64,000 bases of DNA from Schmidtea nova (lineage: Eukaryota). The stretch is taken from positions 110,236,001 through 110,300,000 of the forward strand of contig CM097884.1 of assembly GCA_044892505.1 (NCBI GenBank), given 5' to 3'. The notes beneath the pieces were generated by a model. It was given only the letters and a program-made list of their open reading frames with translations. It ran no database searches and was not told the DNA's origin. Both the position numbers and the translations under genes were made by a program. This document shows positions 1,060 to 64,000 of the stretch, piece by piece; position 1 is the stretch's first letter, and every line of letters starts with the position of its first letter.

Positions 1060-1097
1060 ATGCTCATATCATTATCAATCATACAAGCTTTGAAAAG

Positions 1098-39600: not shown

Positions 39601-42380
39601 CTCATGACTGTTACTGACACTCCAGAGTCCCATAACATATCTACTTCTGTATTATTCAACACTATTTTACTCCAACTTCTTCCATCCTTCGTCTGATACA
39701 TATCTTCTTCTGCCTCGTCTCTGCTTCGTTCATTTCTTCTTTCATAATTTATTGTCTTGACTCCACCGACGAAATGAAACCCATGGAGTCGCTGATGTTT
39801 TTTCCGTCTTCTCTAATGTAGTATATTTTTCAGGAACATTGTATCTATCTTCCATATCGCTGTGAGCCATTCTGAAATCTTGGCTGTTTTCGGTGTAATC
39901 TCTTCTTTCAGATTTGGAATCTTCTTCTTCTATGCACGCAATTCTTTGATATCGACGGGGAACCTCTTTCCGTAACGAAAAACAATCTCGGAATCCGTGT
40001 CCCTCTTTACCACATATCAGGCATTTATTTCCCAGTGGGCACTCATATCTTTTGTGTCCCCTTTCGCCACAGCAAAAACAATCACCTACTGTCAATTTTG
40101 GAGCCGGTGCTTGTGGTAGTCCTCTACTTTCGTTATAAATCCTTCTTGCTATATTATTCATGGAAATTGTTGGCAGTTTCCTTTCTCAGCCATCTTGGAT
40201 TCTCACATTTCTCAAAAATTGTTCTTTTGAGAATTGTTCTCGTACACCGAGAATTATTGTATTAATTCTTAATTAATGTATTATTTCTCTCCTTCTGGGC
40301 ACTCCTCATTAATTTTATTTTACCATTTTTGGATTCGTCTCACTATTCGCACCCATACCAATTTCCCCCGATAAATCTATATTTTTAAATTTCCTAAATT
40401 TTAATTAATTTTCATTGTTTAATTATTACTTTTAAAATGTTAATTTTTATTGATTTTTATCAAATTTTTGTAATTTCTATTTTTGTATTTGAGCTTATTT
40501 TATTAAACCCCAACAAAATAGACATTAAAATTTCCGAAGTCATTCATGATTCTTATTTAAAAAAAGTTGTGAAATTCAAAAAGCAAGTCAAATTACATTT
40601 TCAAAGCTGAAACTGGAAAAAAATATTTTCAGACGAACTCAAAGCTTACCGAAAATCGAGTGATTGTGCCTCTGCCAAGGTAACCAAAGATAAAAGTGGC
40701 AATCCTAGTATTGCAAATATTATTATTTCTTTTTATGCGGTATTTCCTTAACATGTATACCAACAGTCTGAAATTAAGGGCCACAAAGACATTTATTACG
40801 GGCAGTTGGTGAGTAATAATTATTTATTGTTATTTTAAACATATTTTAAATCTACTGTTAAAAATTTTATTAATGATTCAACCGTTTAATGATTCCCAAA
40901 TAAATATTATAGACACTCCATGAGATAATAGGAAATTGTTGATATTTTTCAATTTCAATACATTAGTAAAAATTTATCCCAAGATTTTGTCTACCGAATT
41001 TGATGCCTATTCAATAATTTCTCTGAAATTGAAAAATCCCAAATAAAATCCTAAAACATGCTGGCAACATAAAATTCCCAGGCGCATGGGCCAGATATCC
41101 TATTTCCAATAATCAAATATTGATAATCGGGTTAAATATCTATTTGTCAGGATGCATAAGAAGTGCAATTGAGAATTCTTCCAAACACATTTCCAGCACA
41201 TGACTACCGAATTTTGAGAACAGGAACTCGATTATTTAAACAAGCAATATGGCAGATATTTTCAGTTTGTAAACTTATCATCAGTCTCCTGATGTTTTAC
41301 ATTAGAATTTTTCATCATTTTTTTCTTCTTCAAATTTATAAATGGCTCGTTCCAGAAATTTTCATTTTTTATAAAGACTAAATAATTTTTTTTCTTTTTA
41401 AAAAAGAATAAACATTTTCAGCCCAGCCGATTTTAAATGTATATTTGAAGTACACGCTTAAAAAAAAGATTTTGCTGAAAAATTTTGAAAATTGTTTTAA
41501 TTTTTTAAAAGATGAATAATTTTGAAATAGAGAAGTGAAGTTAAAAGATGAAAATAAGAAATGTTAATGATAAAGTGATCCGTTATTTCTAATTTCACCA
41601 ATTCATGAGGTTGTCTTGATAAAAGTTGGATTAACAAAATGTGCACAGGAAAAGGCGTGCAAAATATTTTAAAAAATCAAAATTGACAAAATTAAAATAA
41701 ATAAACTGAAATGTAAAAAACTAATTAATAATAATAAAAAAATTTTAAAAAATATAAACACGTGTAAGAGAATAGCAAATTAAAGGATACGAAAAATCGA
41801 GTTTAAGAATTTCAAAACGAATGGAGTGTCCTTTAATAAAGTTATGTTAAGATTACAAATTAATTAATTCACATAAAATAATCAATTTAATTAGTAAACA
41901 AAATATCCAAACTTGTCAGACGTGGTGTAAATAATCTAATTCCATTTCTTTGGATTTTCTGGCCGATTGAGGCCTGATAACCTAATTTGGAAAATTATTG
42001 ACGTGGGAAAAGTTTGATAAAAGAAGCGAAATAATTGATATTGAAAAATCTTTTAAAATTTAGAAACGACCATTTTTATGGCAAGTTTGCTTGATTTTTA
42101 TAGTGGTTGCAATATATGACGGAGGCACTATAATTCTTTTTTTATAGAAATTGTTGGGTATGCTTGTGGTGATACAATTAATATATAAATATATATAATA
42201 TTTATATTAAATATAAATTAAATATATATTAAGAATATATTAAATATATATTTTATAATATAAAAAAAGAAATCGTGTAAAAAAACTTTAGATAAAGAAA
42301 AACTTTTGTTTTAATTCTGTGAAAATTTGAAAATAATTTTTTTCTGCTGTTGATTTTATTTTTTATAATCCAGTTAAACT

Positions 42381-42890: not shown

Positions 42891-43859
42891 TTTTGGCTTA
42901 TTTGTCAACCACATACATAAACTATCTCTTATTACGTAAAAATTATTAAAACAAATTATTAATGTATTTTTAAAGATATTTTAATTTTATAATAATATCA
43001 TAATATGAAATTAAATATAAATTGAAGTATTTAAAATTTTTTTCAAGAAGTATTTATTTAAATAATAGTTTTAAACATAACTTACATATTTCGATTAATT
43101 TGGCAACTTGGAATAGTTGATTTTGAGGTAAGTTTAAGGTATCCAAATTTCTTTCAGATCAAACCAAGTCCCCACCCTTTCGAAAAAGTTAACAATATTA
43201 GACCTCTTCATTTCTTTCTCTCCTCAAGATTTCGACTCGCCTGGGCTGCCGTCAAGCTTCTATTTAATTTTTAATTTAGATTACATAAGAAAATAAAATT
43301 AAAAAATTTAATATTAATTATTTATTAATTGGAACAAGAACAGTCAAAAATATTTGCATTTGCTCACATCCGCACATCGACACCATGCACAAACTGTATG
43401 TACAATTGATGAAAAAGCTTGTAAAGTATTCATAATATAAACATTTGAAAACTGGAACTTTTGGTCATACCGAAAGGTTCGTTCGGGACACTTGGACACG
43501 AGATTTAAAACCGGTGACAATCTCTATTAATCGGACGTCTGGCAATCTTAGGTAAGTTGTGAGCTTTATCTAAAGTAATTTTTTTCTAGATTACGGAAAC
43601 CAGGATTAGCTATAGCAGGAAGCGGTTGGTGCAAAGCCTCTTGTAATTAAATTAATTAAATTAACCTTAAAATATATGTTATTTCTTATTTAAAAATTAG
43701 CCAGCATTTAAATCAACATCAGAATTAAAGAAGAATAGCCTTCAAGTTTTGTTTATATATTAGGAGAAAAGAGCGTAGTTTTCAAATTTAATAAATTTTG
43801 TAGTTGACTTTATTTATTTAATGGATAACGAAAATGATTTTGATATCGTTGCTGCTAAT

Positions 43860-44887
43860 ATGGCGACCACGCCAACAAACCTATTGATTAGCAGGATGTT
43901 ACCAGAAAGATTCCACAGAGACGATGACTTGGAAGAATTCATCAAAGAATGTCAAAAGTATTTTAATATTACGAAGATATCTGTCAAAATGCAGATGATT
44001 CTGGTTACCACACTGTTGGATAAACCATTATATGACGAATATGAAAAAGCAGAAGGAAAAACATTCAAGGAAAAGCTCAGAACAGCATTTTCGAGACCAA
44101 AATCATTATTTGACGACTTCAAAGGAAGCTCTTAATTATGAACAAGGATCCGATTCAGCAGACCGATTCATCGAAAAAGTGGAGAAATTAACCAAAAGGT
44201 TATTAAGACATGAGTGGAACGAAGAAGAAATTAAAAAATGCCTGCTTATGAATGGAACTCGAGAGAAAAAAATTAAAAAAGAAATAGAAATGCAAGAACT
44301 AAAGACGTCAGAAGAAATTAAAAGCACAATTAGAAAAGTTGAGAAAGTGAATAAAGCTATAAGCCATGTTAACACCATTCGACCTATAGCATATCCGAAA
44401 CCTGTCAAAAGCTTTAGAGATGCCGTTCAAAGACCTGCACAGACAAATGTGATTCCGATGTCAAAACCATTGGAAGTGACTAAAAACGTCGTATGCTGGA
44501 CATGCCAGAAACCAGGCCATATAAGCCGGGAATGTACTATAAAGAGGAAGATTCAGTGTTTTGGATGTGGATTATATGGACACGTACGCCGAGAATGTCC
44601 AAACATCCAGTGTAGGAGATGTCATCTACGAGGTCACAAAGAAACTGAATGCTATACAAACCTAGAAAGATTTAAGCCGAAAATGAGCCAACATGGAAGG
44701 AACAATGCAGCATATCAAAATAAAAGGGACCGATTTCAACAAAACAATCAGTATAATAGAAATTGGACATCAAGATGCAAACTATCAAGTAAATTATTCA
44801 AGTGAAGCCGAAGAGAAATACGAAGAAATGCAATACCCAAACGAGGAAGCTCCATCACAGGAGGCGATGATCGGAGCCATTTATTAG
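43860..44887 (+). pseudogene. Gypsy gag with three CCHC zinc knuckles (frameshifted)
   Basis: CWTCQKPGHISREC, CFGCGLYGHVRREC, CRRCHLRGHKETEC. Frameshifts near 44125 and ~44760. Confidence 0.88.
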
Positions 44888-47800
44888 GTAATTTTGATTT
44901 TGATGAAAATGCTGGTTATAATAATTTAAATAATTTGAATAATGTAAATAATTTGAATAATGTAAATAATTTAAATAATGTAAATAATTTTAATTTTGTT
45001 AGTAAAGATTTATGTAATAATATTGATAATAAAACTAATTTTAATGTTTATAAAAGTGGCAGTACAGATCAGAAAAATGAAAACAGAAAAATAACGTGTA
45101 GCGATGAAGGAACTGGAGAAAAAGTATATAGATTCCTAAAAAAGACATTTGATATGAATGAAGATAAGATTATGTGGATTAATGAACTTTCCGATAGTAT
45201 AAAGAATAAAGTGGAACAAAATATATTTATAAAAGACGAATGGAGAAGACCTCGTATGAATTATCATAAAATGCAAGGTAGACCAAGTATAACACTTGAA
45301 ATTCAGGGCCGCGGAATTGAGTGTCTGTTAGATACAGGAGCACGAATTAATGTTATGTCTAAAGCGGTACTGGATAAACTTGACAAAGTCGAGATAATAA
45401 AAACAGATAAAATGCTAAGGTGTGCAAATGACAGTAAATTGGAGACTATCGGTAAAATTCAAATTGATGTAAAGATAAGGAAACTAACAAAAATAGTGAC
45501 CTTTACTGTAGTCCAAAACATTGTCCCATATGTTATTGGAGGTGTAGAATTACAGAAACAATTCGGTATTGAATTAAGATGGATTCAAGAAGATGAAATA
45601 ATATTTAACGAACGTATATGTGAAATTGTTGCTAAATTTTGGAGGAATATTACAAATGAAGAAAGATTCCAATATGCAATAGAGAAGTTGAAAGTAAAAG
45701 AAGATAAATTTCTTTTAGAAATTATCAAGAGAAATAAATGTGTTTTCATGGCTGACAAGTGGGATATTGGATGCACTGATTTAATTGAGCATAAAATTGA
45801 AACAACTGGTGGACCAATAATGATAAAGCCAAGAAGGCAGCCTATAAACTTGGAAGAGAAAATAAACATGGCCAATAAAAATCTGGAGGATAATAATATT
45901 ATAAGGAAGTGTAATTCACCTTGGAACACCACGTTAGTGTGCGTTTGGAAAAAAGAAAAGAAGGATATCAGACTTTGTTTGGACTTTAGACAACTTAACA
46001 AAATTACTGAAAAGCAAGTGTTCCCGATGCCAAATGTCGACGAGATCTTAGATGCTTTGCATGGAACTAGATATTTTAGTACCATTGACCTTGGAAACGC
46101 ATACTATCAGGTAAAATTGGATAGATAATCACAGGAGAAAACAGCTTTTTCAACGATAGAGGGACAATTCTGTTTTAATCGAATGCCATTTGGCATCGCA
46201 GCAGCACCAGGCACTTTTCAAGAGCTCATGATGAAGATATTAAAGGATATATGGAAAGACGGAGTAATTGTTTATTTGGACAATATATTAATTTTTACGA
46301 ATACAATGGAAGAACACTATAAACTGCTGGAAAGAGTATTGCAGAAAATTGCGGATGCTAAACTAAGAATTAACCCAGAAAAATGTCAAATACTGAAAAG
46401 TGAAGTGAAATTCTTAGGCCATATTATAAATAAAGGTGGCATTCAAACTGATCAAAGCAAAATTGAAGCTATTCAATCATTCCAAAGGCCAAAATGTGTG
46501 AAAAATTTAAGAAGTTTCTTGGGCATCTGCAACTATTATCGAAGGTTTATTAAAGACTACGCAAAAAAGTCAAGATCTTTAGAGAGTATGTGGTAAAACT
46601 AGCGACAAAATAATATGGAATGAAAATTGTGAGCAGGCTTTCGAGAATATGAAGTTGGCATTGATAACCGCACCGATCTTGGTATTTTCGGATTTTAAGA
46701 AAGAATTCATATTGGATACGGACGCAAGTTTTGATACGATTGGCGCAGTGTTATCACAGAAGGATGACATGGGATATGAGCAAGTTATCGCATATGGATC
46801 ACATGCGATGAATGACCACGAAAGGGGTTATTGTATTACAAGAAAAGAACTTCTGGCTATATACTATTTTTGTCGACATTTCAACCACTATTTATATGGA
46901 AAAAGATTCACACTACGTACAGATCATAAGGCGATAACGTTTATGCTAACAACAAAGAAGCCAATTACAGTTGAATTCCAGACGTGGATAAACTATTTAA
47001 GCAGCCTTGATATAAAAATGGAATTTAGAAAAGGTACATTACATGCTAACGCAGACATGTTATCGAGAAAAACGTGTGGCACATGTGTACAATGCCTTAT
47101 GGATCACGATAATCCTAAAATGGGAAGAATGAAAACCAGATTGTTAAGTATAATGACTGAAGGGAAAGGAGAGGAATGGCAAAGAAATAGTGAAGAAATA
47201 GAGGACATTAAAAATAAAATAAGAACTCAACCAAGTAAAAGGTTTATAATAGAAGATAACAATATTTACACCAAAGAAAAAAGAATATGGATACCAGAAA
47301 GTAAAAGAAGAGAAATGATTAAGAAAACACATTTATTATTATGTCATGCCGGAGTTGATAAAGTTATCAAATACATACAAAACAATTTTGATATAAGAGA
47401 TTTAATAAATGAGGTAAAAACAGCAATATCAAACTGCGAATCGTGCCAAAAAGTTACAGTTGTAACTACAAAGATGAAAGAGAAATCAAATGTACTTGAA
47501 GCATCAGAACCTTTCGAGAAAATATATATGGATATCTGTGGCTCAATGAAAGAAACATTTAACAGGAAAAGATACATTTGCGCAATAATCGACCATTACA
47601 GTAAATACATTTCGCTAACAGCAATAAATAAACAAGATGAAGAGACAATTGGGAAGATATTGTTAAACAATTGGATTCTAAAATTTGGGGCACCCAAGGA
47701 ACTACATGTAGATTGCGGGAAAACATTCGAAGCGAATAGCATAAAGAATATAAGCAAGAAAGCAGGGATCGAAATAGTGTATTCGAGTTCATATCATCAT

Positions 47801-48268
47801 AATACGAATGGTATAATCGAAAGACAATTCCGGACAATAAGAGATTTTATTAATGCATCGCTGAAAGACGGAAATACAAAAGACTGGGCAGATCTTATTC
47901 CAGATATAGAATATACACTCAACGCGACAATCCAAAAAACAACGGGAGTAAGTCCAGCTGAAATTGTTTTTGGTAGGAGAATTGATAGATCGAAATGGTA
48001 TAGTGATAGTAGAATCAACAGAAAAGAAATAGCATTGAAAATTGAAAGTAAAAGACTAAATGACGAAACAACAACTGCAAGGAAGTTTGAAGTGGGAGAC
48101 AAAGTGTTAATCAAACGAGAAATACGAAACAAGGATCAAGATAGGTATGAAGGACCATACACGGTAACAAAACGAATACACGATCGTAGTTATATGCTGA
48201 GAGATAAATGTGGAAAGTATTTAATCAGGAATATTGAAAAGATTAAAGAATTTAAAGAAGGTGGATGA
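44806..48268 (+). pseudogene. Gypsy pol (PR-RT-RH-IN)
   Basis: LLDTGA; RT with YLDN (catalytic D to N); in-frame TAA at 46126-46128; frameshift at ~46590; RNase H DTDAS; HHCC, DDE and GPY integrase motifs. Confidence 0.92.
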
Positions 48269-48789
48269 AAGGGTAGAATTCACGTTTAAATTAAAATTGC
48301 TAATAAACATTTAAATTGTATTTGTCAGATATCATAAATTTTTATTTAAACATCTTAAATTAATTAATTAAATTAACCTTAAAATATATGTTATTTCTTA
48401 TTTAAAAATTAGCTAGCATTTAAATCAACATCAGAATTAAAGAAGAATAGCCTTCAACTTTTTGTTTATATATTAGGAGAAAAGAGCGTAGTTTTCAAAT
48501 TTAATAAATTTTGTAGTTGATTTTATTTATTTAATGGATACCGAAAATGATTTTGATATCGTTGCTGCTAATAATAGTTTTGTCTGTTTTTATACAAAAT
48601 TTTATTAGTTGTATGTTATGTTACAGAAAAATATATTGTTTCAAAAAAATACAAATATATATAAACAAAATAAAACTTGTATTTCAGTTGAAAAAGAATT
48701 ATTAAATTGTTTTTACTACAAATTTAAACATTGCCAATTGAATTAAGCTAGGTCCAAAACAACCAATAAAATAATACTTCTAGAAAATG

Positions 48790-50936: not shown

Positions 50937-53900
50937 TATTCATGTAATTATTGGTGGGTTGTTGACCGTCAATATGACCTTGACGTTTCCATGGCTCTCA
51001 TCAACAACTCAACACACAAAACATTGAAATTACCATCTTGTTACCCGTCACTATGTAACGTTGGTACTGTAACAAGTGGGTGGGTATTCGCAATCAGTGA
51101 GCGTCGTCAATACGAAACTATGATTGACCGAATATCTCCTGGGTCCAAGGGCTACCGATGGAAGGTTTCTTGCCCATTTTTGTCCCCCTTAATTTATATA
51201 CTCTATCACTGTGGATGTTTATTACGAAATTTTCATTTGAATATTTTCGCCAAACTGTGATTTATTTATTAATCAATTAATTTATTTGAGCGCTTTTACT
51301 CTATTCGCAAACATGCATTCGAAAATATTATCGCAACTCAATTAGGTGATCAATTATTCCTTCAGAAAATGCATATATTTGGGAATATACAAATTGCTCT
51401 TATTTAGACCCAAATTTTTATCATTATCGCAATTTCCTTAAATTGTTATGTTTTTTATATTTAAAATTTATGTAAACTTTATTTATATTCAAATCCTATT
51501 GTCTATCTTGCTTTAAATTTATAATAGAAAATTCATTAAAATTTCAACATTTTGATTTTAAAATTTTGCTGAGGCCTTAGTAACGAAATTGATCTAGTAA
51601 AACTTTGGCTTATAATTTATAATCATCAGCTTTCGGTCTTTTTAACTTATTTAAATTCTTAATTCAAATTTAAAATTTCCTGCGAAATTAGAGTGCACTT
51701 TTTTTTAAAAATTTTTACTAAAAATTTATTTAATCAAAAAATATTTAATCCTTGTTTAAAATAATTAACTAAAATCAACCTCAAACAAGCGCGGCTTGAT
51801 TGGTTGTTTTTATTATGGGTGTTATTTGTGATGGTAAAATTTATTGATTTTACCATACCCTTTTTATGATAATCAACTTATTTTAGAGTAATATCATGAT
51901 TCTTTAAACAAGCCAAAAATACTGGAAGGAATTTTATTTATATTAGCATTCGATTCGGCGTCAAACACGCATTTCAGAATGGCTCTACCGGTGTGAAATA
52001 TTCTTCCTTTATTTTTCCAATTTTTCAAGTATGGAATCTCGTCGGGGATTTAACTCAACTCGATACCATTATGATGGCGACGCCTCTGTGGAATTTTCCG
52101 TCCAGGCTCACATACTCTTGAAAATCTCATCTACTGGACATCTTAGGAATTTAATTTCTCCTGTCAGTTCAAATCTCCAATTCATCTCGATGATTTCATC
52201 TCTTATTATAAATCGACTCATTCCACGAATTGACAAATGATTCAACCTGCCATTTACTGTAATTTCCTATTTCTGATCCCTAATAAAATTTTAGTTTTTG
52301 TAAAAATATATATTTGGTTTTTTTTTTTTTGAATTTATGTTAATTAATTTAATAAATAATTTGAGAATTTTATATAAAATCTAATATTTGATATCCGATA
52401 TAATTGGATATAATAATATATAATAATATCTAAATAATATATAATTATATATAATATTTATAAAATATAAATTGAATTAGGAGAAGTTGTAGTTAATTAA
52501 GATCTGGTAGGCCGTATATCGGGTAACGAAAAACAGAAGGGGTTAGAATTAAAAAAAAAATATCCCTCTTGGTATACTATAAACTATGAATTTACAGGGG
52601 CATCCGAAATGTAAATGTAGATGTTTGTATGTGGTTGTAGTTGGATGAGATGAAGTATAATGACTGTATGTTCTATTGTTACTATTGAGTTTGTGTGTGA
52701 TTTGTGGATGGGTGATTGAAAAACAATTAAGTGCTCGTGAGTGTGGTCAGATGTACGATTCCAACTAGCATGTCTGTGTGGAATTTTTGGTATGGTTTGC
52801 TTGTGTGCATGTGATTGTTGAATGCTATTGAATGATACTGTGTATGTGTGTGTATTGTGTTTTATATGTATGTTGCTTGTGTATTAGTATGGATGATGCT
52901 ATTGAGTGAAAAGGGTGTGATTTTTTTGCAATGAGTGATGTATCATTATTTTTAAGATATCGTGGGGGTGGTTATATTATAAATTATATAAAATAATTTT
53001 AAAATAATAATAATAATTTTAAATTAAAATAATAATAATAATTTTTAAATCAAAATAATAATAATAATTTTTTCAATACTTTTTATGGATTTTTAATTTA
53101 CAATTTTACGAAAATTAACTAATGATGAAATTTATAAGTTTTGTAATATATATTTTTGAAGTTAAATTTTTATCTTTTTAGAATATATATATTAATCATA
53201 AAATTTTTCCTATAAAATTTCAAATTCAGATTTTTATAAAATGATAAGAATTTTTAGTATAATAATAAAATTTCGATCTATAATTTTTATGGGGTTTAAT
53301 ATATCTTTTGATTTGCAATTCTCTGGAATTTTATGAAAGAATAAAATCTTTTATATAATAACAATATTAGGAACCAATTTTGGTTTACAATTTTTTCCAT
53401 ATAAAATCTTTTCAACATAATAAAAAGCAAATTTTTATTTCTGATCCAAATGAAATGATAATAAATTTTTATCCATAAATTTCGAAATCCAAGTAAGCAT
53501 TTAATCTAAAAGGTTTTTATATGCTAAATAAAAATAAAATAAAATAAGTTATAAATTTTTCAACGAATATTTTTAATATCAAGTAAAGTAAATTTCGGTT
53601 TTGTTGAGCATGAATTTCCCAATCAAAATGCACGCGAATTTTTCGGGACACTTCACTTAGGAATTTCAGGCTCTCGAAAACGAGGTTCACAGGAAAAATT
53701 TATTTAGACAATAATGAGTGTAATTCAGATCAAATAAATACTTGTTTCACAATTCGTTTCATTTCGTGAGCATTATTCTAGGCTTGAGCATTATTTCGAA
53801 CAATTTTCTTTTCACCATTAGCTTTCATTTTTCTTGCGTTTTCTCATAAGATGATCGTTGTTGAGAGTGTGAAGGTGAAGGTGAGTACGAGTCGATTTTT

Positions 53901-55644
53901 TAATCAATAATATTTCCTATTTTAGATTTCAAGACATGAGTTAGAAATTGTTATGTTATATTACGAAATTGCTTATGTAGATAATAAAAATATGATACTC
54001 TATTATAATAAAAATCATTAGTATAACAAATCCTTGCTCTTGGCCATACCACGATTCCCCAGTTGGGATGACGAGATTATGGATGTATGAGCCTCACCTT
54101 AAAGTGGAAATATGGGCTGGCCGATTACCAATCAGACAACGATCCACCCAGGCTACTAACAGATCCGCACAACTAAGGCTGGACGGATCGTCAGAAGATA
54201 TGGGAGAAAAAAAAATTTCTTTACTTATTTTCGATAATTTTATTCGAATAACTGCTGGTAAACTAATCATTAGGTAGGGAATTTGTGTCTTATTATGATA
54301 ATAATAACAAGAAAAATTTTAATAAGAATTAATATTTTAATAATTTCATAATAGCAATATATAAATCCATAAAATAATACATAACAAATTATCAAAGAAC
54401 GAGGAGTGGAATGATCGTCAGGCATGATGGACGACCATTCCAATCCTCAATAAAAATAAATATAACATAAAAAAAAAACAATTACTGTTTACGTTTCCTC
54501 ACGAATTTTGGGAATTAATAAATTCTTCTAAATCGGATTGAAATTCTCTGGGATTCTAAAAATCTTCTCGGAAAATAATGAATTCTTCTTAGCTAGAAGC
54601 TTTTCAACAGAGTTTTTTCACAATTTCTCTTAAATTAAGATGTTGTAAATTAAATTCTAAATTCTTAATAGAAAAATTTTTTTCACAAATTCTGACTTCT
54701 GCCATTTTGATGGCGGTATATATACCATCAAATTTTCTCTATCTCCGGTAGTGCAATAAAACAAATTGTTCTAGAATTTTCTCTTAATTTTTTCTAAATT
54801 AATTCTAATGATTTTCCGAAAATTAATTCCATATTTTTGTATAATAATTTTTTATAAACTATAAATAATTTATTTTAATTCAAAATTTTTATGTTTGAAT
54901 CGAAATTTGTTCGATTTGATTTAATTTATGATATTCGATCCATATTAATTCTTTCTATTGTTATATGTGAAATTTTGTGATAAATTCACAATTTTCCTCT
55001 AGAATTGTGTTAATTTTTCTGCACTTGAAGGTTTATGACAAAATTCTGTTCTTTATGGGCATTCTTCATGGGTTTTTTGCCTATTCTAGCTTCCAAACAT
55101 TCTGCTTTTAATTTTTCTCCAGATTTCAGTAAAAAGACTTACAAACTCGCAGTTAGCGCGTACTCTACCGGTTGATGTGTTTTGATTCCACTTCACCTTT
55201 TGGTGTTTTCCACTTAATTGTTGGATTTTTAATGGAAGCTAAGGTTAAAAATGGAATCTTGCGCGTTCTCTACCTATGGGGTTATCGCTTTATTAAAACA
55301 AATTGCGTTTTGGCCCAACATAAAATACTCGGGGGCCCGCAAAAATTGCATCCCGCAATTTCTCAGAGGGGTTAAGAACCAAGACTAATCAAAGGTCAAA
55401 AGGTTGTACATTATACACGAGCTACTTGGTCGTGATCATGCCGTTCGCGACAATAAAAATAAAAAGTGATAAAAATTAATAAAAAGTTAATACGTATACA
55501 TTAATATGAGTCTACATCGACTCGCAAGCAAAATTAAATGTAATATATGTGCCTACAGCCTCTAATCAAAGTTCAATATGAGTCTACAACGACTCGGATA
55601 AAAGTTTTATCAAGTTTATTAAGTTTGTTAAATTATCAAATTTA

Positions 55645-56439
55645 TTATTGAATTGGTTGGATCTTCGACTGGAATAGTTTGAATGACTCGGTATTGATCA
55701 ACTGTTTCTTGTCATCTTCTCTTCGGGATTGTTCGGAGGTCATGTTGTTCATCATTCTTGTGGTGGTCAAGCCTAACCGTATTATACCACAAATTCCGAT
55801 TATTAGGAAAAAGTTAAGGATGATCAGGCAGATATCGAGAATTCGTTCGGATGATAGGAGGGATGCTCTGCACTTGTCTCTGTCTTGATTGTTATCCGGT
55901 TTCGATATCTCGTTTATGTGATCGTGGATTTTATTCTTAAATGCCAGGTTCTCGAAATAAGCCTTTCTTAGTTGTTGTGCCGTTTGGTTTCCTACTTCGG
56001 AAATCTGCTGGGACAGGTTATGATGAATTTGCTGGATTTGTTTCAGACATTTCGGACTTGATGAATTTATCGTTGGCTGATCGATTAACTTGACTATATT
56101 CATTTTAAGTTCTTTGGTGAGACTTTTTATTGCGTCACGGGTTTCTCGATCATTATCAAAAATATCCTCGAATGTATCTCTGATCGCTAAATCGGCTAAT
56201 ATTATCGTTGCTATTCTCTTTAGACCTGAAATTTCTTCATTTTGATTGAAAAGGGTATTTTGAATTTCGACTTTGGCTTGCTCAATCTTTTCGGATAGTT
56301 GTTTGTTGTTAGAGATTTCAAATGGTTCTTTATTACATTGTTGATTTGGGTTTAATTGGCTTGATTTCTGGGTTTCTTCGAGATGACAATAAATTGTTGT
56401 GATCATGGCGATAAGGAAAACCTCTCGGTACGATTTCAT
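55645..56439 (-). CDS. Type-I membrane protein (264 aa): signal peptide, coiled-coil ectodomain, C-terminal TM
   Basis: N-terminal VFLIAMITTIYC; Q/E/K-rich heptads; TM ILDICLIILNFFLIIGICGII; intact ORF. Confidence 0.8.
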   Translation of the reverse strand: MKSYREVFLIAMITTIYCHLEETQKSSQLNPNQQCNKEPFEISNNKQLSEKIEQAKVEIQNTLFNQNEEISGLKRIATIILADLAIRDTFEDIFDNDRETRDAIKSLTKELKMNIVKLIDQPTINSSSPKCLKQIQQIHHNLSQQISEVGNQTAQQLRKAYFENLAFKNKIHDHINEISKPDNNQDRDKCRASLLSSERILDICLIILNFFLIIGICGIIRLGLTTTRMMNNMTSEQSRREDDKKQLINTESFKLFQSKIQPIQ

Positions 56440-56642
56440 TGTTGATTTTTTGTGTTTCTAATAGAAAGAAATTGAATAATGACGATAAATAATTTTTGTT
56501 ATTTACAAGGGCGTTACGATTTTTACACAGGGTTATGATTTAATGATGATGAAATATTGTTCAAGCTGAGAATACAAATAGATAGATAGGTTAAATGAAT
56601 GGAAGAAAATACATGAGTTGTCAAAAGGGGGATCGAATCGTA

Positions 56643-57467
56643 TTATTGTTTATAGAAGTAATTCATCTGCACCGAGGTTGTAGATGTCTCAGGATTAGGC
56701 TGTTCTGGAACTGGATCTTCAAATATTGATCTTAAAAAATTCTCTGACGGGTTGTTGTCTTCATGGGTGATTCGTTTGATTGTATTCAACTGGATTTTAG
56801 CTTTCTCTAATTTCATTTTCTCTAATCCGATTGATGCAGCAATGCTAAGGATCATTATGACCGCGAAAAGACTGATGCCTTGTAGAACGACTGTGATGGC
56901 TGCTTCTCGGTCTCTGACGTTTTCGTTTGTTGATCCTTGTTTAGGGGTAATCTCCTTTTGCTTTTCGGGTAATATCAATTGTTTTATAATTCTCTCGGTC
57001 TGATGAAGTTGACTTTTCAGTTTTTGATTTAACTCTTCTGTAAAACTTGATCTTTCCTCATTAACTTCATCTTTATTATTTAAAGATTTTTCTATTAGCT
57101 TGCTCAATTTCTTTAGTTCGGTTGTTAACTGTTTGAAAAATGATTGGTTTTCGAGCTGTTTCTTTAGTTGAAGATTGTTTCTTTTGGTTAAGGAGATTTG
57201 TAGTTGGATTAATTGTTGAGTTTCATTTCTTAATTGTTTAAGGATGGTGATTGAATCTTCACTGGATTTAGGACATTGTTGACATTGTAATTGTATCTGT
57301 TGACACTCCTCATTTCTGGTGCTACAAATTTCTTGATAGCTTACGCAAATGCTATCGGATCTTCTAAATGGGTGGCTTGCTTGACATTGACTCAATGCTT
57401 CTTCGCTTCGGCAGTTTGTAATTATAAATATCATGATGGTGGTTGTGATCCTCCTTAGATTGCTCAT
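56643..57467 (-). CDS. Type-I membrane protein (274 aa): signal peptide, Cys-rich N-terminus, coiled coil, TM
   Basis: ITTTIMIFIITNC; 7 Cys in the first ~70 aa; heptads; TM AAITVVLQGISLFAVIMILSIAASIGL. Confidence 0.8.
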   Translation of the reverse strand: MSNLRRITTTIMIFIITNCRSEEALSQCQASHPFRRSDSICVSYQEICSTRNEECQQIQLQCQQCPKSSEDSITILKQLRNETQQLIQLQISLTKRNNLQLKKQLENQSFFKQLTTELKKLSKLIEKSLNNKDEVNEERSSFTEELNQKLKSQLHQTERIIKQLILPEKQKEITPKQGSTNENVRDREAAITVVLQGISLFAVIMILSIAASIGLEKMKLEKAKIQLNTIKRITHEDNNPSENFLRSIFEDPVPEQPNPETSTTSVQMNYFYKQ

Positions 57468-57562
57468 TTTCTATAGATTTATAGATTCAAATTTGTTTAA
57501 TGATTTGTCAAATTTTCTCTTTTATATTTTTACAGGGATATTTACATGAGTTTAGATATATT

Positions 57563-58138
57563 TTATTCTTTCGTCTCTTCATTTAGCTTTAACGGACTTT
57601 CTGGCTTCCAGTTACCCATTTTTGCAATCTCGTCTGCTTCTTTTCGCCTTTGTTCTTTGAGGACGTAATTTTCTGCCGTTTTAATTTCTACAACTTTCTT
57701 TGCTTTGAATGTATCAAATTTTGCTTCTATGATTTCACTTTTCAACTTTATTATCTGTTTTTCTCTTTTGATAATCTTTTTCTGTTTGCTCTTCAAGGAT
57801 CGTTGTAATGACTCGATCTTAATTCTCCTTTTATTATCAGTGTTCTGTTCACTGCTTATTTCCCTTTTGAGTCTGTCAATCTCTTGCTTCTGTCTGTCGC
57901 AATATTTTTGAGTAAGACCATTTTGTTGGCGAAATAGATAATTTTCTCGCTTGATTATTTCCATCGTCTCGCACTCTTGTTCCATTTGTGCGATATATTT
58001 TCTATCTTTGCTCATTACTTCCTTCAATTGGTCTATTTGGTCTTGAAAATATTGTTCTGTTGCTCTTTTCCATTTTTTGAATCTTTCTTTTGATATCGTT
58101 TGTTGTTCTGGTTCTGATCTTTGCTTCAATAATCTCAT
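57563..58138 (-). CDS. Coiled-coil protein (191 aa), function unknown
   Basis: Intact ORF, K/E/Q-rich heptads. Confidence 0.75.
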   Translation of the reverse strand: MRLLKQRSEPEQQTISKERFKKWKRATEQYFQDQIDQLKEVMSKDRKYIAQMEQECETMEIIKRENYLFRQQNGLTQKYCDRQKQEIDRLKREISSEQNTDNKRRIKIESLQRSLKSKQKKIIKREKQIIKLKSEIIEAKFDTFKAKKVVEIKTAENYVLKEQRRKEADEIAKMGNWKPESPLKLNEETKE

Positions 58139-58419
58139 TTTCTATAATTTGAATTTTCATAACTCTTTTCTACAGTTTTATTAATTTTGTTTTTGTTTTT
58201 ATCATTTTTATCATTTTTATCATTTTTATCATTTTTAACATTTTCTAATTTTTATTTGTTTTTCATTTTTTCTAATTTTTATTGAATTTTTATTTTTTCT
58301 GCTTTTTATTTAGTTTTTTGGATATATTTTACAACTTTTTCTTTTTACATTTCTTTACAACGTTTTCTTTTTACACTACATTTCAATTTCTTTTTACACT
58401 TTACATTCACTTTTATTAT

Positions 58420-58611
58420 TTATACAAACGTCTCTTCAATTTCTCCGAACCCTTCATCTTCGATTTGAGGATTTTCTTGCTCCAAATGTACAGGTTGTAT
58501 TGGTGTTGGATATAGTGGCCATAGAATGATTGGAGGTTGATTTTGTAGGCTCTGAACTCTTTCTCGCAAGGTTCTTGAGATTTCTATCTCTTCATCTAGC
58601 AAATATGTCAT
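58420..58611 (-). CDS. Small ORF (63 aa) overlapping the upstream stop via ATGA
   Basis: Same codon style as its neighbours. Could be a frameshifted tail of 58608-59966. Confidence 0.4.
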   Translation of the reverse strand: MTYLLDEEIEISRTLRERVQSLQNQPPIILWPLYPTPIQPVHLEQENPQIEDEGFGEIEETFV

Positions 58612-59966
58612 ATAATCGAGTTTTCACTCAGCTGTTCCTTTTCTATCTCGAGCTCTCTCGTATTTTCCATATTTTTTAACCTTTCAATCTCTCTTTCATA
58701 GTTTTGGCGGTTTTCTTCCAAACTTTGGATAGCCATTTCAATCTCATACTGCGATTGCTGGATCGCTTTCTCACATTCGGCCTTTGTTTCTTCTATCTGC
58801 CGTCGCTGGTGTTGAATGACAATGTCTTTATGAGTATTTGTTCCTCGATATCCGTTGACTTCACGGTTTGCAATAGTCAATTCGATTGTCAATTCTTCAA
58901 TACTTCTATCATCCATATTTTTCTGTTGATCATATTGCCTATTTTCAAATTCCAGATATTTGATACGAGCTTCTTGATTCCTGGTAAATTTCATTCTCCT
59001 TTGATTCCATTCAGTTTTTAATTGAACTTGTCGTTTTAATTCTTTGTTTTCTATCTCTTGCTTTTCTGCATTTTCCCACAATTCTGCTTCATTTATTGAC
59101 ATCAGCTTCTTTGGAAATTCTCGTAGTTCGTCTCGAGTTCTTTTCCAGGTCTTTTTCCATGTTCTGGCTTGTTCTTTCAGCCACTTTATTTGATGCCTTA
59201 TGCTTCGTTCCCTGAACTGTCCGCTCGTTTTCAACTGGAATATTTCTTTTCTGAGTTTCTCCGTTTCCTCATGACGTATGTCTGCATACCAATGACATTC
59301 CTCTTTCAGAGCCTCGATTTGAACGTCTCTTCGTCTTAGTAATTCTTCCTGTAGCATTTTCCTGTGTCGAGCCATTTCCAATAAATCTTGGTGTTCTTGT
59401 TTCCATTTCCTAGCCTCTGCTTTAACTTTTCTAATGATATTTTCTTGTTCGCTTTCAGGTTCAATGTTTCTTGTTCTGACTTTAAGCTTCTTTTGAGGTT
59501 GTCCTCTCAAAACAAATGCTTCATCTCGACACTTTTCCCATTTCTTTTTCATGGCTTCATATCTGTTTCTTTCACTTTCGAGTTGTTGCTGATAGAATCT
59601 TATGGAGTTGTCATACCTTGTTTCGGTATCTCTTTTATAGGTTTCGAGCTCCTCTTTTCTTAGTCTCGCTTGATTTTTCAATGGTACCGACTTTCGTTGT
59701 TCGTGCTCGAGTTTTCTCTCCATTTCTCTGTACTCTCGTTTATAATTGTCTAATTCAGCTTCGATATGCGCCTTGTCGTTTATTATCTTTCGCAGTTCCT
59801 CGTTTTCTTCTTTTATTTTGTTGATCTCTTGGGTTCGTTTTTCAATTATTCTGACGTTCTCTTGGATGGCTTCCATTCTTTGTTCATAGCTTTTCATTTG
59901 ATTTAGTTGCTCTTGTCTTTTTGCCATCTCCTGATTTAGGATGTCTATCAATTGTTGTATATTCAT
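58608..59966 (-). CDS. Long coiled-coil protein (452 aa), Trp-studded
   Basis: Intact 1.36-kb ORF, E/K/R/Q-rich heptads. Confidence 0.8.
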   Translation of the reverse strand: MNIQQLIDILNQEMAKRQEQLNQMKSYEQRMEAIQENVRIIEKRTQEINKIKEENEELRKIINDKAHIEAELDNYKREYREMERKLEHEQRKSVPLKNQARLRKEELETYKRDTETRYDNSIRFYQQQLESERNRYEAMKKKWEKCRDEAFVLRGQPQKKLKVRTRNIEPESEQENIIRKVKAEARKWKQEHQDLLEMARHRKMLQEELLRRRDVQIEALKEECHWYADIRHEETEKLRKEIFQLKTSGQFRERSIRHQIKWLKEQARTWKKTWKRTRDELREFPKKLMSINEAELWENAEKQEIENKELKRQVQLKTEWNQRRMKFTRNQEARIKYLEFENRQYDQQKNMDDRSIEELTIELTIANREVNGYRGTNTHKDIVIQHQRRQIEETKAECEKAIQQSQYEIEMAIQSLEENRQNYEREIERLKNMENTRELEIEKEQLSENSII

Positions 59967-60100
59967 TCTGAAATAATAATAACATGGGTAATTTCCTTTT
60001 GTTTATACATTTTTTGTTGCTCATGCTTATTAAATAATACTTGTATACATCAAGTGAAATTAAAATCTTTACAATTTATTTACAAAGTTGTTTGATTGGA

Positions 60101-61270
60101 TTATTGATCGGCATAACGGAATCCCTTGATCCGTTTGTCGACCGGTTTCCTGCACATTGAGCACAATCTCAATTTATTGCTACAATTTTCACATGCTAAC
60201 AGATGTCCACACGGTAAATGAATAACTTCTACTTTCTTTATCCAACAGATTGAACAGGGGTATTTATTTAATATAACTTTCTTGATACATGATTCTGGGT
60301 TGACAACTTGGGATTTTCTGGTGAACTGTATTATAGCTTTAAAGAATTCTAGGGTTGATCCAAATGTTTCTCCATTTCTTCTCAATCTCTCTCTGATGAC
60401 TTCTTTCATAAATATTTCGCTTTTGCCGGTGCGTTCCATTGCCTTTTGAGTTCGTGGTTCCTCTAATATCTTGTCTACTAATAATTCATTAACAGGCACC
60501 TCTGGGTTTTTATAATTGATCGGCTCTTCGTCTTCATATAATTCTTCTCTATATTTACAATATTCGTTGGGTTTCAGGTATTCTCCTTCCTCTTTTGGTA
60601 ATTGATATTGTATTCCACACTCTGAACATTCAGCGGTTGATTCATTTATTGCATAAAGACCTTCTATTGCTAATCTGATACCCATCTTTTTATCTGCAAA
60701 AGTGTTAGTTCTCCCATTAATCGTATATTTTGGATCAATTTCTATGAAACGTATCTTTGCTGGACCTGTTGAAGTTATCGTTACTATTTTGGGTTTTTCT
60801 TCTTCGTCGTTGTTCATTGTTGCTGGTTTTCTTGGTGTTTCGCATGCCTTTAACACAAACTGGCATGTGGGTGAAAGTTTTCTATGTTCTGTTAGTGGAT
60901 CATCGTTAATTCTCCAAGGTTCTATTTCAATTCTGCAAAATACACAGGTTACTTTATCGGGTTTCTCAATTGTCCCTGCAAAATACAAACCATCTTTGGC
61001 GAATTTTCTGTATTGCTTTTCATAGAAATTGTCTTGTTGTAAAAAGGTTATATATCTTCGGTTCTCATTTTTCAACGTTTCATCGATAATTTTGAATTTG
61101 CCATAATTCCTTTCCTTGGGAACATTCGATATTGTTCGTGTAAATTGGCAATAAATCAATTCTGAGGTAATTGGTTTTGACATCTTTTCTTTACCTCTTT
61201 TCATTAATTCGCATAAACTTTTGAATGATCTGTCATCTTCTCGTATTTTCACGATCTTCCTTTCAGTCAT
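60101..61270 (-). CDS. Inhibitor of apoptosis (IAP/BIRC family): BIR, degenerate BIR, UBA-like region, RING (389 aa)
   Basis: Exact BIR Zn signature C-x2-C-x16-H-x6-C (CVFC...EH...PTC). C-terminal IAP-type RING CSIC..PCGH..CENC..CSMC. Intronless. Confidence 0.93.
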   Translation of the reverse strand: MTERKIVKIREDDRSFKSLCELMKRGKEKMSKPITSELIYCQFTRTISNVPKERNYGKFKIIDETLKNENRRYITFLQQDNFYEKQYRKFAKDGLYFAGTIEKPDKVTCVFCRIEIEPWRINDDPLTEHRKLSPTCQFVLKACETPRKPATMNNDEEEKPKIVTITSTGPAKIRFIEIDPKYTINGRTNTFADKKMGIRLAIEGLYAINESTAECSECGIQYQLPKEEGEYLKPNEYCKYREELYEDEEPINYKNPEVPVNELLVDKILEEPRTQKAMERTGKSEIFMKEVIRERLRRNGETFGSTLEFFKAIIQFTRKSQVVNPESCIKKVILNKYPCSICWIKKVEVIHLPCGHLLACENCSNKLRLCSMCRKPVDKRIKGFRYADQ

Positions 61271-61490
61271 TGTATCTACAATATTTTCTCCGTTATATTT
61301 TCACAATTTTTGTTTTCTATATTTACAAAATTTTGATTTTTCTCATTTTTATATTTGATTTTTTGGTTTTTCTCATTTTTATATTTCTTTTTAATTTTTA
61401 TGTTTTTTGTGATTTTTTAATTTTATTTTGTACATTATGATACAGATACTTCATTATAATACAGACATATTTACACTTTTTCCATCTTCA

Positions 61491-62948
61491 CTACGGCTTC
61501 CTCACTTCGATAATCAGATACAGGATATTATTTACCAAATATAATGATTGTTCTGTGGTTAAATAATGTAATGCAATAAAACGTGGATTTCCTACAGCTA
61601 CGTTGTAGTTTTCGATCGGCTTCCTATAAGCTGCTTCTACCTTCTTCAAGTTTGGTCTGAATACTTCCCGAACGTTGTTTTCCTTTGTTCCGATCATCAT
61701 AGTTATATCGCAATCGTAGGGCCATTCTAACCAATCGTCATAATCTCCTTTACATATTTGAAAATATACAGATAAATGAGTTCCGGCTCCTAGTCCGTCT
61801 CCCGTTAGATATACTTTGAATCTGAGCTTGTAACCATGTTTCCAACTGTGACAAGGTGGACTTGTCCATACACGTTGACCTCCTTCTCTTGCTAGTCTCA
61901 ATTTCTCTGTAAATTCTGTGATTTTCCAATAGTAGGGTGTGACGGGTAGTTCTTCCATTGTTGGCAATATGCTTTCCAATCTTTGTTGGATTGTTGATAT
62001 TTCTGCTATTTTCTGGTCTAATAGTATCATTTTTTGGATCATTTGTTCTCTTATTCTTTCAAAATTTCCTCTCGTATCCAACATCTCTTGTATCATGATT
62101 TTGTGTGATTTTATTTCTGTGTTGGCTTCTCCAATTACCAGTGCGATTGCTCCAATAGCTTCCACAACGGTTCTCAAATGATTTACACTATTTTCATCTA
62201 CATGCTTTTGTATTTCCTCTTTTGGTAATCTCACTTTGCAATTGAATAATTTTAGTGGACATGCAGTAGGCTTCTTTTCGCATATTTCCCAATGTTCTTT
62301 TAGCTTCACGTTTTCTGTCATTCCACATTGATTACAATTTCCTTCGTACTCGTCACATATTTGCCCTTCTTCTATATTCCAATGCTCATCTTTTAACACT
62401 ATCCAAGCGTCTGTTTCGTTGCAAAACTCACAGATTTCCTGTCGTTGTTCACACATTTCCTCATGACTGTCTTTGACTTTCTTCAACATTTCTTCTTCAC
62501 ACCACTTGCATTTGGCTTTCGTATCATCACAATTATAAAGGTGTTTGGCGATCCATTTTATTGGCCCACTCTATACACATGGTTTATTTGGACAGGTTGT
62601 TGCTGCGTTCATTATTTTCCGATTCATTGCGATATCTGGTCTGGTTTGGTCAAATTGGTATATTATTGCTTCACCACATTCAGGACATAGCTTCTGTTTT
62701 GTTCGTATTATTTTCATCACGCAATTAGTGCATATTCGACATCCACATTCAGTTTGTCTGGGTTCTATCAATAAATTTCTACATACTTTGCATTTAAACC
62801 TTTCTTGAAATTCTGTTGGTTCTATCTGTTGTCTCTGTAGTATCTGATATAATTCGATCAATTCCTCTTGTTTCTGCTGATTCTCGGTCTGCATTCTAAA
62901 ATAATTTACAATTTTTTCGTTTTGCTCTTTATACCAAGTTTTATTCAT
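61491..62948 (-). pseudogene. TRAF: TRAF-family protein (RING, Zn fingers, coiled coil, MATH), one in-frame TAG at 62571-62573
   Basis: The two track ORFs are in frame, linked by 27 sense codons (CPNKPCV*SGPIKW...). MATH motif GYKLRFKVYLTGDG.GAGTHLSVYF..KGDYDDWLEWP is TRAF2/3/5-like. Symbol is family-level only. Confidence 0.93.
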
Positions 62949-62988
62949 ATTCACATTTTTACATTTTATTTACACTGGTTTTAAATTT

Positions 62989-63624
62989 TTATAATGGTTC
63001 ATCCCTTCCCGTCGAGTCAGGCTCTCGAACCGGTTCTGGAAAATTGTCTAACCAGTTATACCATGCTCTAACTTCTTCTCGCGTCTCATTCAATCTTCTA
63101 ATTTCGTTTGTTTGCCACTCCGTATGTCTTGTTAACCATTCAATTCTCTGGTCCTTTTGGATTATCATTTGTTGTTGTTCTTCCATTTTAGCAAGATATA
63201 ATAAATTTCTGTTTACACTTTCTGTTAACAAAGCTTGTTCGTTTTTCCATTGTGCATAGGCTTGATTCAACATCCTGCTTAATAATTCACATTGCGTTTT
63301 CCATGATAACTCTTGCGTCATTGTCTGCTGATAAACCATAGGAGCTGATATTGATTGAGTCTGGCTATTTGTTGGTTGTTGATTTAATACGAATGTCGTT
63401 TGAATTGGATTCATGGTTTCATCAAATAGTGGGATTTCGACTTGGTATATCAGGTTTCTATCATCAATTGTTGGATTTTGCGTTTCATTTTCGATTACTG
63501 GGGTTTGCAGTGACCCTTCTCTTTCTCGTATATTGGTATCTTCTGGAAATTGAGTTTGATTTGATGGTTCATTGATCGTTGGAACTGATGCTTGATAACT
63601 TTGATTCTCGTTGTTCGGATTCAT
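62989..63624 (-). CDS. N/Q/T-rich protein with C-terminal coiled coil (211 aa from first ATG)
   Basis: Intact ORF. The track start at 63633 is TTG; the first ATG is at 63624. Confidence 0.7.
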   Translation of the reverse strand: MNPNNENQSYQASVPTINEPSNQTQFPEDTNIREREGSLQTPVIENETQNPTIDDRNLIYQVEIPLFDETMNPIQTTFVLNQQPTNSQTQSISAPMVYQQTMTQELSWKTQCELLSRMLNQAYAQWKNEQALLTESVNRNLLYLAKMEEQQQMIIQKDQRIEWLTRHTEWQTNEIRRLNETREEVRAWYNWLDNFPEPVREPDSTGRDEPL

Positions 63625-63775
63625 TTCTGTCAATAATTACACAATATTATCATTTGTTTTTCCCAGTTTTGAGGTATTCATTTTTTTGGATTTTTAAATT
63701 TTTATTATACAAATATATTCTACTTTTATAATACAATATAATTTTATACACTATATTCACTGTTCCTTCCACTGG

Positions 63776-64000
63776 TTACTCTGACAACTTGCGTTTCGAC
63801 GACATTCTGATGTTCTCATCTGGCTCGACGGTTAATATGACTTTTACGTTTTCTTGGGTGACTTTTGAACCATTATGTGTTACTATCTGACATACGAGTG
63901 TTCTAAACATTTCTTGTGATGCTTTCTTTTTGTAAACACAGATTTTATATTTTGTTTCTCGTTTTAATCTATTTATTCGGATTTCTCCTTCTTCTGCTTG
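63776..64000 (-). CDS. 3' end of a further ORF entering from beyond the window
   Basis: 75 codons open from 64000 to TAA at 63776-63778 (QAEEGEIRINRLKRETKYKICVY...KRKLSE*). Not in the ORF track. Confidence 0.65.
   Translation of the reverse strand, partial: QAEEGEIRINRLKRETKYKICVYKKKASQEMFRTLVCQIVTHNGSKVTQENVKVILTVEPDENIRMSSKRKLSE

Follow-up and report, generated by a model that had tools for sequence, protein, structure and literature searches.

Splice acceptors beside the start codons of accessory genes in a Burro-like LTR element of Schmidtea nova, mapped through spliced genomic copies

The element and its accessory genes

We analysed a stretch of 64,000 nucleotides of the Schmidtea nova genome (GenBank assembly GCA_044892505.1, contig CM097884.1, positions 110,236,001 to 110,300,000; referred to as the window), which carries a cassette of open reading frames (ORFs) on its minus strand. 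This cassette forms the accessory part of a long terminal repeat (LTR) element of 25.6 kb and lies between two LTRs of 4.37 kb that are 99.6% identical, with TG...CA ends and a 4-bp target duplication (ATAA). Read along the minus strand, the ORFs encode a RING protein of 160 amino acids (aa), a protein of 153 aa, a protease-ankyrin protein of 851 aa, a protein of 211 aa, a TRAF-like and an IAP-like protein, and proteins of 452, 191, 274 and 264 aa. Over the whole element we found the Pfam domains MATH/TRAF, BIR, RING, ankyrin and aspartyl protease; a BCL2-like domain was not found in the Pfam search of the element proteins.

Candidate copies number about 1,300 genome-wide (1,301 and 1,295 in the first counts), and this single family, at 96–98% identity, took up the results of both the protein and the BIR search of the genome. 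Two of 20 BIR loci (L018 and L019) were unlike the element and were left out of the copy counts. No internal stop was present in 104 of the 106 best IAP matches, and a protein database search with the IAP gave no homologue at E 0.001. In comparison to other copies the window copy is damaged at three places: a stop inside the TRAF ORF (62571-62573), an early end of the coiled-coil ORF (58608) and a protease ORF that is broken, outside the window, between the 153-aa and the 851-aa ORFs. A tblastn search at E 0.1 with five Gypsy gag, reverse transcriptase (RT), RNase H (RH) and integrase (IN) proteins from the window, in which the positive control matched, gave no match in the window copy or the longer copy L017; both copies were covered from LTR to LTR, and neither showed an RT, an RNase H or an integrase. 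After the 5' LTR comes a primer-site-like sequence that may be tRNA-Pro-like; the 5' region and the LTR contained no tRNA genes and gave no Rfam match at E 0.5.

YAG motifs at the start codons

A preliminary description of the window had reported a splice-acceptor-like YAG just before nearly every start codon of the cassette. All six motifs named there were located on the minus strand, with the acceptor G at 63627, 61276, 59968, 58142, 57471 and 56458 and a distance to the ATG of 2, 5, 1, 3, 3 and 18 nt, respectively. The rough estimate that a YAG within 5 nt of five of seven ATGs lies above chance is now backed by 5,000 shuffles per spacer: 0.80 were expected from mononucleotide shuffles (P 3e-4) and 0.48 from dinucleotide shuffles (P 2e-5), for seven ATGs and a 5-nt cut-off that had been picked after the data were seen. 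The motif is thus commoner in the real spacers than in composition-matched ones. As controls, a YAG within 5 nt was found at 11% of 91 non-start ATGs in the spacers and at 17% of 235 ATGs inside ORFs.

TRAF had been described as an exception to the pattern, with a weak CAG (at 62975) 26 nt ahead of its first ATG. A second in-frame Met at 62894 is directly preceded by TTATTTTAG and a single A, the AG lying at 62897-62896, 1 nt before this Met. Of 32 copies, 29 have an open frame of 466–467 codons from Met 62894; the first TRAF ATG is absent or out of register in three of these 29. Judged from these frames, TRAF probably begins at 62894 and would hence be no exception to the motif. The spacer to the first ATG does measure 40 nt, as had been stated; the argument that it is too short for a promoter and a poly(A) site of its own lapses if TRAF starts at 62894, which lengthens the spacer to 94 nt. 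Counting TRAF from 62894, a YAG lies within 5 nt of six of seven ATGs and an AG within 6 nt of eight of nine likely starts. This correction was made after the sequence had been seen and was kept out of the P values.

Out of sample, TTTCAG stands 0 and 6 nt ahead of the ATG in two of the three ORFs upstream beyond the window (P ~0.08 alone); the two upstream acceptors lie at contig positions 110302892 and 110305589. The third upstream ATG has no YAG motif; it is probably not a true start, because its ORF runs continuous with the preceding ORF in the longer copy (L017). The pattern was not common to the ORFs of a neighbouring Polinton-like element, one of ten having an AG within 6 nt.

Splice junctions fossilised in sister copies

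An LTR element copies its own RNA into the genome, so spliced RNA leaves exact deletions. We searched the whole genome for each exon start with a changed upstream base. This yielded 13 distinct GT...AG junctions from 12 donors, all of them GT (3.5% of the dinucleotides here), ending at six ATG-proximal AGs, namely five of the window's acceptors and one upstream beyond the window. Many junction loci descend from one event, and the meaningful count is that of the 13 junctions. Because exact GT...AG deletions in sister copies end at them, the AGs are real spliceosomal acceptors, which are used in vivo in cis at five sites of the window.

Acceptor 59968 showed junctions at 37 of the 43 loci examined (46 matches; L155 was classed by eye), with donors at 60008, 60048, 60072, 60083 and 62786 and one beyond the window. 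For 57471 junctions were present at 8 of 13 loci classed (95 matches, mostly a one-A length variant) and for 56458 at 14 of 20 loci examined (76 matches). At 58142 one of ten matches was a junction, with 7,536 nt removed from a GT donor 1.7 kb beyond the window. This one outside donor serves both 58142 and 59968, and at exon position -1 each join carries a base other than that in the three unspliced copies compared; on these grounds they are probably real splices, if not exact ones. The longer copy lacks a 41-nt GT...AG segment that ends at the upstream acceptor of the polyprotein, while the acceptor of the first RING ORF gave no junction, its three matches being point variants. Nine of the 13 fossil introns measure 41–155 nt and lie wholly within a spacer; the long-range removals comprise 2,819, 4,125, 5,710 and 7,536 nt.

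A set of 35 copies unselected for junctions contains 13 distinct deletions of at least 25 nt. Two of these have a single placement, start with GT and end exactly at 59968, and one more ends at 56458 with one mismatch. About 3–6% of the unselected copies lack one local intron and its AG (2/35 at 59968), and a subgroup of intron-lacking copies has spread. The AG is retained at six sites in 32/32, 33/33, 35/35, 32/32, 33/33 and 33/33 copies, a count of low power at a background divergence of only 0.3–4%. At 56458 TGG replaces TAG only in 9 of 35 copies, all of which lack ~590 nt of the 264-aa ORF (55731-56317) and form one lineage.

Several other deletions were not accepted as splicing. The remaining 10 of the 13 have 2–12 equivalent placements (microhomology) and end away from the acceptors; the deletion in L020 can be written as GT...AG, with 12 placements. 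L101 has a 31-nt non-GT deletion at the IAP site, the only non-GT deletion met at an acceptor, and L095, L186 and L187 carry small local changes. In six further copies (L051, L170, L144, L184, L185, L088), joined at a known donor, exon position -1 is occupied by G and not by the T or A of the window copy; these were not counted as separate junctions. They span four donors and may represent stronger donor variants that were spliced more often, or a deletion shifted by one base.

Donors and spacers

All 12 donors start with GTA, 10 of the 12 are TGTA motifs and none has a full GTAAGT match. As donors they are weak and lie scattered, most of them at UGUA motifs within the spacers, and a single acceptor (59968) takes six of them. 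Acceptors that lack a partner behave in this way, and we saw no donor dedicated to them. In searches at the seven window acceptors and the first ORF, a donor in the LTR or the 5' leader accounted for none of the 13 junctions; the CAG-acceptor searches miss leader exons ending in C-N-N, and the first-ORF search misses those with an A at -2.

The stop-to-start spacers measure 94, 95, 134, 151, 203, 220 and 469 nt, the last being 267 nt in the longer copy. UGUA serves as an upstream signal when mRNA 3' ends are formed, and it also makes up the core of PUF sites. Given this role and the TGTA signature of the spacers (Table 1), the donors look borrowed from the 3' untranslated region (UTR) of the previous gene. 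As an observation of its own, the excess of TGTA and of the PUF-type TGTAHATA may mean that each ORF is followed by signals for 3'-end formation or for translational control in stem cells.

Table 1. Features of the element in and next to the window (window positions unless stated; acceptors are named in the text by their G, the lower coordinate)
Feature	Position	Strand	Remarks
5' LTR partner	contig ~110308205-110312564, beyond window	-	99.6% identity to 3' LTR
Protease-ankyrin ORF, 851 aa, 3' end only in window	63776..64000	-	Retroviral-type aspartyl protease and ankyrin repeats; continues beyond window
Acceptor CAG, 2 nt before ATG 63624	63627..63629	-	Used: donor 63749, 123 nt, 1/8 matches
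211-aa ORF	62989..63624	-	No Pfam family
Candidate acceptor TAG (TTATTTTAG) before ATG 62894	62896..62898	-	AG in 33/33 copies
TRAF-like ORF	61491..62894 (probable start)	-	RING, zf-TRAF, MATH; stop in this copy at 62571-62573
Candidate acceptor TAG, 5 nt before ATG 61270	61276..61278	-	AG in 35/35 copies; no junction
IAP-like ORF, 389 aa	60101..61270	-	BIR E 1e-15, RING E 6e-11
Acceptor CAG (TTATTTCAG), 1 nt before ATG 59966	59968..59970	-	Used: six donors, 41 to 5,710 nt removed
452-aa coiled-coil-like ORF	58608..59966	-	515 aa in longer copy L017; earlier stop here
Acceptor TAG, 3 nt before ATG 58138	58142..58144	-	Probably used: 7,536-nt join in one copy
191-aa coiled-coil-like ORF	57563..58138	-	–
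Acceptor TAG, 3 nt before ATG 57467	57471..57473	-	Used: donors 57545 (75 nt), 61595 (4,125 nt)
274-aa ORF	56643..57467	-	Signal-like N-terminus, cysteine-rich motif, transmembrane stretch
Acceptor TAG, 18 nt before ATG 56439 (17 nt in most copies)	56458..56460	-	Used: donors 56506 (49 nt), 56612 (155 nt)
264-aa ORF	55645..56439	-	Hydrophobic N-terminus, C-terminal hydrophobic stretch, no Pfam family
Eight non-coding spacers	55322..63775	-	TGTA 39 vs 8.2, TGTAHATA 6 vs 0.4, AATAAA 13 vs 12.0, GTRAG 0 vs 2.2 expected
3' LTR	50952..55320	-	TG...CA, then ATAA target duplication

Comparison with spliced-leader operons

The 3' end of the spliced leader (SL) SL1 was taken from Fig. S6 of PMC10899757. 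The 3' 21-mer of SL1 has 915 exact copies in the genome, mostly joined to mRNA-like sequence, and nearly always so among the 100 that were listed. Counting by hand among the 100 of the 915 that were listed, an ATG lay within 0–6 nt, in any frame, in 16 of ~50 distinct SL junctions, so that a start codon close to the acceptor is a feature common to the SL junctions of the host and to the element.

Three properties of operons resolved by SL trans-splicing were found at the locus: the host has SL trans-splicing, as seen from the 915 SL1 ends; the genes lie on the same strand with short spacers (six of seven at 94–220 nt, one of 469 nt); and working acceptors precede downstream genes, with junctions at five of the seven window acceptors. 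Flatworm operon spacing is given as at most 300 bp in PMC12582326, with a peak near 100 bp in PMC8629364. The element is like flatworm SL operons in its same-strand genes, spacers of 100–300 nt, acceptors near the start and acceptors that are also cis-spliced. It is unlike them in being a retroelement whose full-length RNA must also stay unprocessed, and SL addition is here a proposed step. According to PMC12582326, LTR and LINE loci in parasitic flatworms carry partial SL sequences. Translation of the cassette by scanning from an LTR cap is unlikely because 42 and 26 upstream ATGs stand before the first two ORFs in the 5' region.

Two possible links to the leader were dropped. An in-frame AUG supplied by the SL should favour AG-to-ATG spacings that are a multiple of three; this was the case for four of nine spacings (common form), with no excess over one third. 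By eye, the stretch just ahead of ATG 57467 resembled the SL 3' end; this was not borne out, as no SL end with at most one mismatch was present in the window or its neighbours.

A proposed mode of expression and its rivals

The preliminary description had read the cassette as a single transcription unit inside a mobile element, resolved either from a common leader or by SL trans-splicing. Our data agree with it in that the AGs are real (five of the six named sites), the cassette does sit inside a mobile element, and RNA that covers several ORFs undergoes splicing at these sites (2.8–7.5 kb skipped); neither a common-leader nor an SL junction was found in the genome-wide junction searches.

We somewhat favour the view that the cassette is an operon-like unit resolved by SL trans-splicing. 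One LTR-driven transcript would carry about nine ORFs head to tail, each downstream ORF having its own acceptor 0–6 nt (once 17–18 nt) before the ATG without a dedicated donor. Cleavage of the 3' end in a UGUA-rich spacer would end one mRNA, and host SL1 trans-spliced onto the next acceptor would cap the following one-gene mRNA. The fraction that escapes this processing would serve as genomic RNA, on which an unpaired acceptor may sometimes take the nearest weak GT; such spliced genomic RNA, once reverse-transcribed and integrated, would give the fossil introns. Mobilisation would depend on an autonomous partner. Internal polyadenylation, SL addition, the single promoter and the autonomous partner are all steps that we infer.

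Several results weigh against this proposal. All splicing directly seen is in cis, some of it over 2.8–7.5 kb. Searches at eight acceptors among genomic copies revealed no SL junction on the element, and the element exons had no match among the 100 SL junctions listed of the 915. No junction was found at the TRAF acceptor 62896 among three genome matches, and no GT-AG junction at the IAP acceptor 61276 among 12 matches. In PMC12582326, cis-splicing is reported to be lowest at operon-resolving acceptors. AATAAA occurs in the spacers about as often as expected (13 vs 12.0), and because of this TGTA is the one signal that speaks for internal polyadenylation. Retrotransposed copies are, moreover, a biased sample of the RNAs made.

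Possible, at a clearly lower probability, is alternative cis-splicing from one exon in the 5' LTR or UTR to each acceptor, with internal poly(A) sites optional. Complex retroviruses and the adenovirus major late unit express many ORFs from one transcript in this way, each ORF with its own acceptor and all with a strong shared 5' donor. The accessory ORFs of the element likewise stand each behind their own acceptor, long-range cis-splicing does happen (the four removals of 2,819 to 7,536 nt), and good donor-like sites are present upstream, a GTAAGT ~180 nt into the 5' LTR and a GTAAGA ~470 nt after it. Unlike in these viruses, the 13 junctions have no shared donor and none starts from the LTR or leader, the acceptor of the first ORF having given three point variants only; an acceptor that takes six donors resembles an unpaired site, and starts within 6 nt of the acceptor at eight of nine ORFs match host SL junctions. 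Retroviral RNA that has lost its primer site, its packaging signal or its 3' LTR is not copied back; leader-spliced and SL-capped mRNAs lacking any of these would likewise leave no genomic copy. The blank for leader and SL junctions is thus weak, because neither kind of RNA need be retrotransposable.

It is improbable that each ORF has its own promoter and a short intron in its 5' UTR. The sizes of the nine spacer-internal fossil introns (41–155 nt) are those of ordinary short introns and the deletions could be these introns, but no donor is fixed (four local donors serve 59968 and two serve 56458). The donors are, besides, TGTA motifs just past the previous stop, which would place the promoter in the upstream coding sequence, and two of the spacers are only 94–95 nt long. 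We give marginally less weight still to the acceptors being relics of captured host genes or by-products of AT-rich 3' UTRs, spliced now and then but not needed, with the ORFs read by reinitiation or internal entry. Occasional splicing is no proof of need, and the intron-lacking copies that have lost their AG include a subgroup that spread; against this stand the retention of the AG in every alignable copy at six sites (32–35 each, of low power), its loss at 56458 only in the lineage also lacking ~590 nt of the downstream ORF, and the rejection of chance placement beside the ATG. That the motif is a product of base composition can practically be dismissed in spite of the post hoc 5-nt cut-off and n=7, with P values of 2e-5 to 3e-4 and, already refuting it by themselves, exact GT...AG deletions at the predicted bases.

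In its language-model features the 274-aa ORF resembles Grindelwald and TNF receptors with a fairly high score, which we treat as a lead only. A receptor-like protein of this kind would, together with TRAF and IAP, make a receptor-adaptor-ligase module in one element. Extending the SL trans-splicing proposal to this module, we see an even chance that the element is a nine-gene retroelement operon which borrows host SL trans-splicing for a TNF-receptor-like/TRAF/IAP module while part of the RNA remains unprocessed for replication. If true, trans-splicing versus read-through would be a switch between expression and packaging, and the availability of SL in stem cells could control it.

Relation to Burro elements and other systems

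Burro elements are giant Ty3/Gypsy LTR retroelements of Dugesiidae planarians, whose accessory domains can form separate ORFs or parts of a polyprotein according to PMC6431247. They share with the present element multi-kb LTRs, an aspartyl protease, ankyrin, MATH/TRAF, an IAP with BIR and RING, coiled-coil ORFs and a very high copy number. LTRs of ~5 kb with TG...CA ends and a target-site duplication have their counterpart here (4.37 kb, ATAA), as do the accessory domains connected to apoptosis and ubiquitin (MATH/TRAF, BIR, ankyrin, coiled coil). Unlike Burro with its gag-pol of PR-RT-RH-IN and its length of more than 30 kb, the element showed the protease (PR) but no RT, RH or IN in the two copies covered, and measures 25.6 kb; a single polyprotein of 4,900 aa in Burro, by the same account, contrasts with about nine separate ORFs here. 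Judged by its sequence, the element is a Burro-like non-autonomous derivative, and we do not file it as a Burro member because of the differences in pol and length.

Burro-type elements are reported to protect planarian stem cells via captured anti-apoptotic genes; the B-IAP of Burro1 is the subject of work by Lee et al. 2026, cited through PMC13465017. Burro1 is derepressed on PIWI knockdown (PMC8532177). Nothing in the literature covered, the text of Lee et al. 2026 excepted, explained how the accessory ORFs of Burro come to be expressed, and the expression of many accessory ORFs from one LTR is not addressed there. Full-text literature searches likewise gave no case of an LTR element, Burro or other, whose expression is resolved by SL or uses several acceptors; Lee et al. 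2026 may describe Burro1 transcripts.

In Ogre elements and endogenous retroviruses, genomic copies that lack an exact GT-AG segment record the splicing of genomic RNA. The present element is like them in its spliced, retrotransposed copies and unlike them in that many weak donors converge on ATG-proximal acceptors, in contrast to the loss of one fixed intron. Burro elements and flatworm operons are thus each already known; the acceptors described here are real and functional, and the proposed operon-like mechanism is probable. The locus offers exact bases for following it up, nine acceptors of which six have already been seen used. Should SL1 be joined to these acceptors, a retroelement would be using the operon processing of its host as a substitute for a viral splice leader; should a common leader be joined to them, splicing would still be unusually complex by the standards of Ty3/Gypsy elements. 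The method carries over to other cases, since the junctions preserved in retrotransposed copies allow splice sites to be mapped where RNA data are lacking.

Additional observations on the element, its neighbours and SL1 loci

Four copies (L016, L017, L041 and L042) break at the same place, at 63768, where they carry ~1.5 kb that is not in the window copy. The extra segment encodes a 396-aa membrane-anchored ORF (L017:8383-9573, minus strand) without a Pfam match. By its features it resembles laminin-G/EGF-like proteins with a very high score, again as a lead only; an "env-like" label was discarded, having no Pfam support and with the features leading elsewhere. In several places copies recur on one strand at a spacing of 14–22 kb (for example C1:384824711/384846681/384868521, C1:554212179/554233451 and C2:304099307/304113766), which matches tandem units with a shared LTR (the period of the window copy would be 21.25 kb).

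A 193-aa homologue of the 274-aa ORF lies 14 kb beyond the 5' LTR (L014:8639-9220, plus strand) and shares its cysteine-rich motif and membrane stretch (local score 208). The host of this gene is a Polinton-like DNA element (~L013:7336 to L014:10000) with 800-nt inverted ends and an A32-type ATPase, so that the LTR element and the Polinton-like element share a gene.

Other transposon remains were noticed in the window at 1-4375, 10102-10797, 13785-15200, 29241-30042, 36666-40161 and 43644-48573. From ORF reading only, they were labelled as a hAT-like transposase with an inverted duplication, a mariner-like transposase, two Penelope-like RT/GIY-YIG pieces and two small Gypsy elements, one of these with short LTRs (43644-43860 and 48356-48573).

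The SL1 3' ends in the genome are often paired, 4–8 kb apart (L188-L194, e.g. C1:45556400-45561330). At all six SL1 loci sampled, two of which are one pair, a common sequence of ~100 nt is joined to the SL 5' end, followed by differing host mRNA starts. One start is HECTD1/TRIP12-like (weak Pfam match), and others are presumably LEM-domain, PP2C and TRM13-like, going by their translations; one sampled unit also has ubiquitin and Hsp90-like pieces. Their structure suggests a further retroelement family, not similar to the window element, which takes up host mRNAs after SL trans-splicing.

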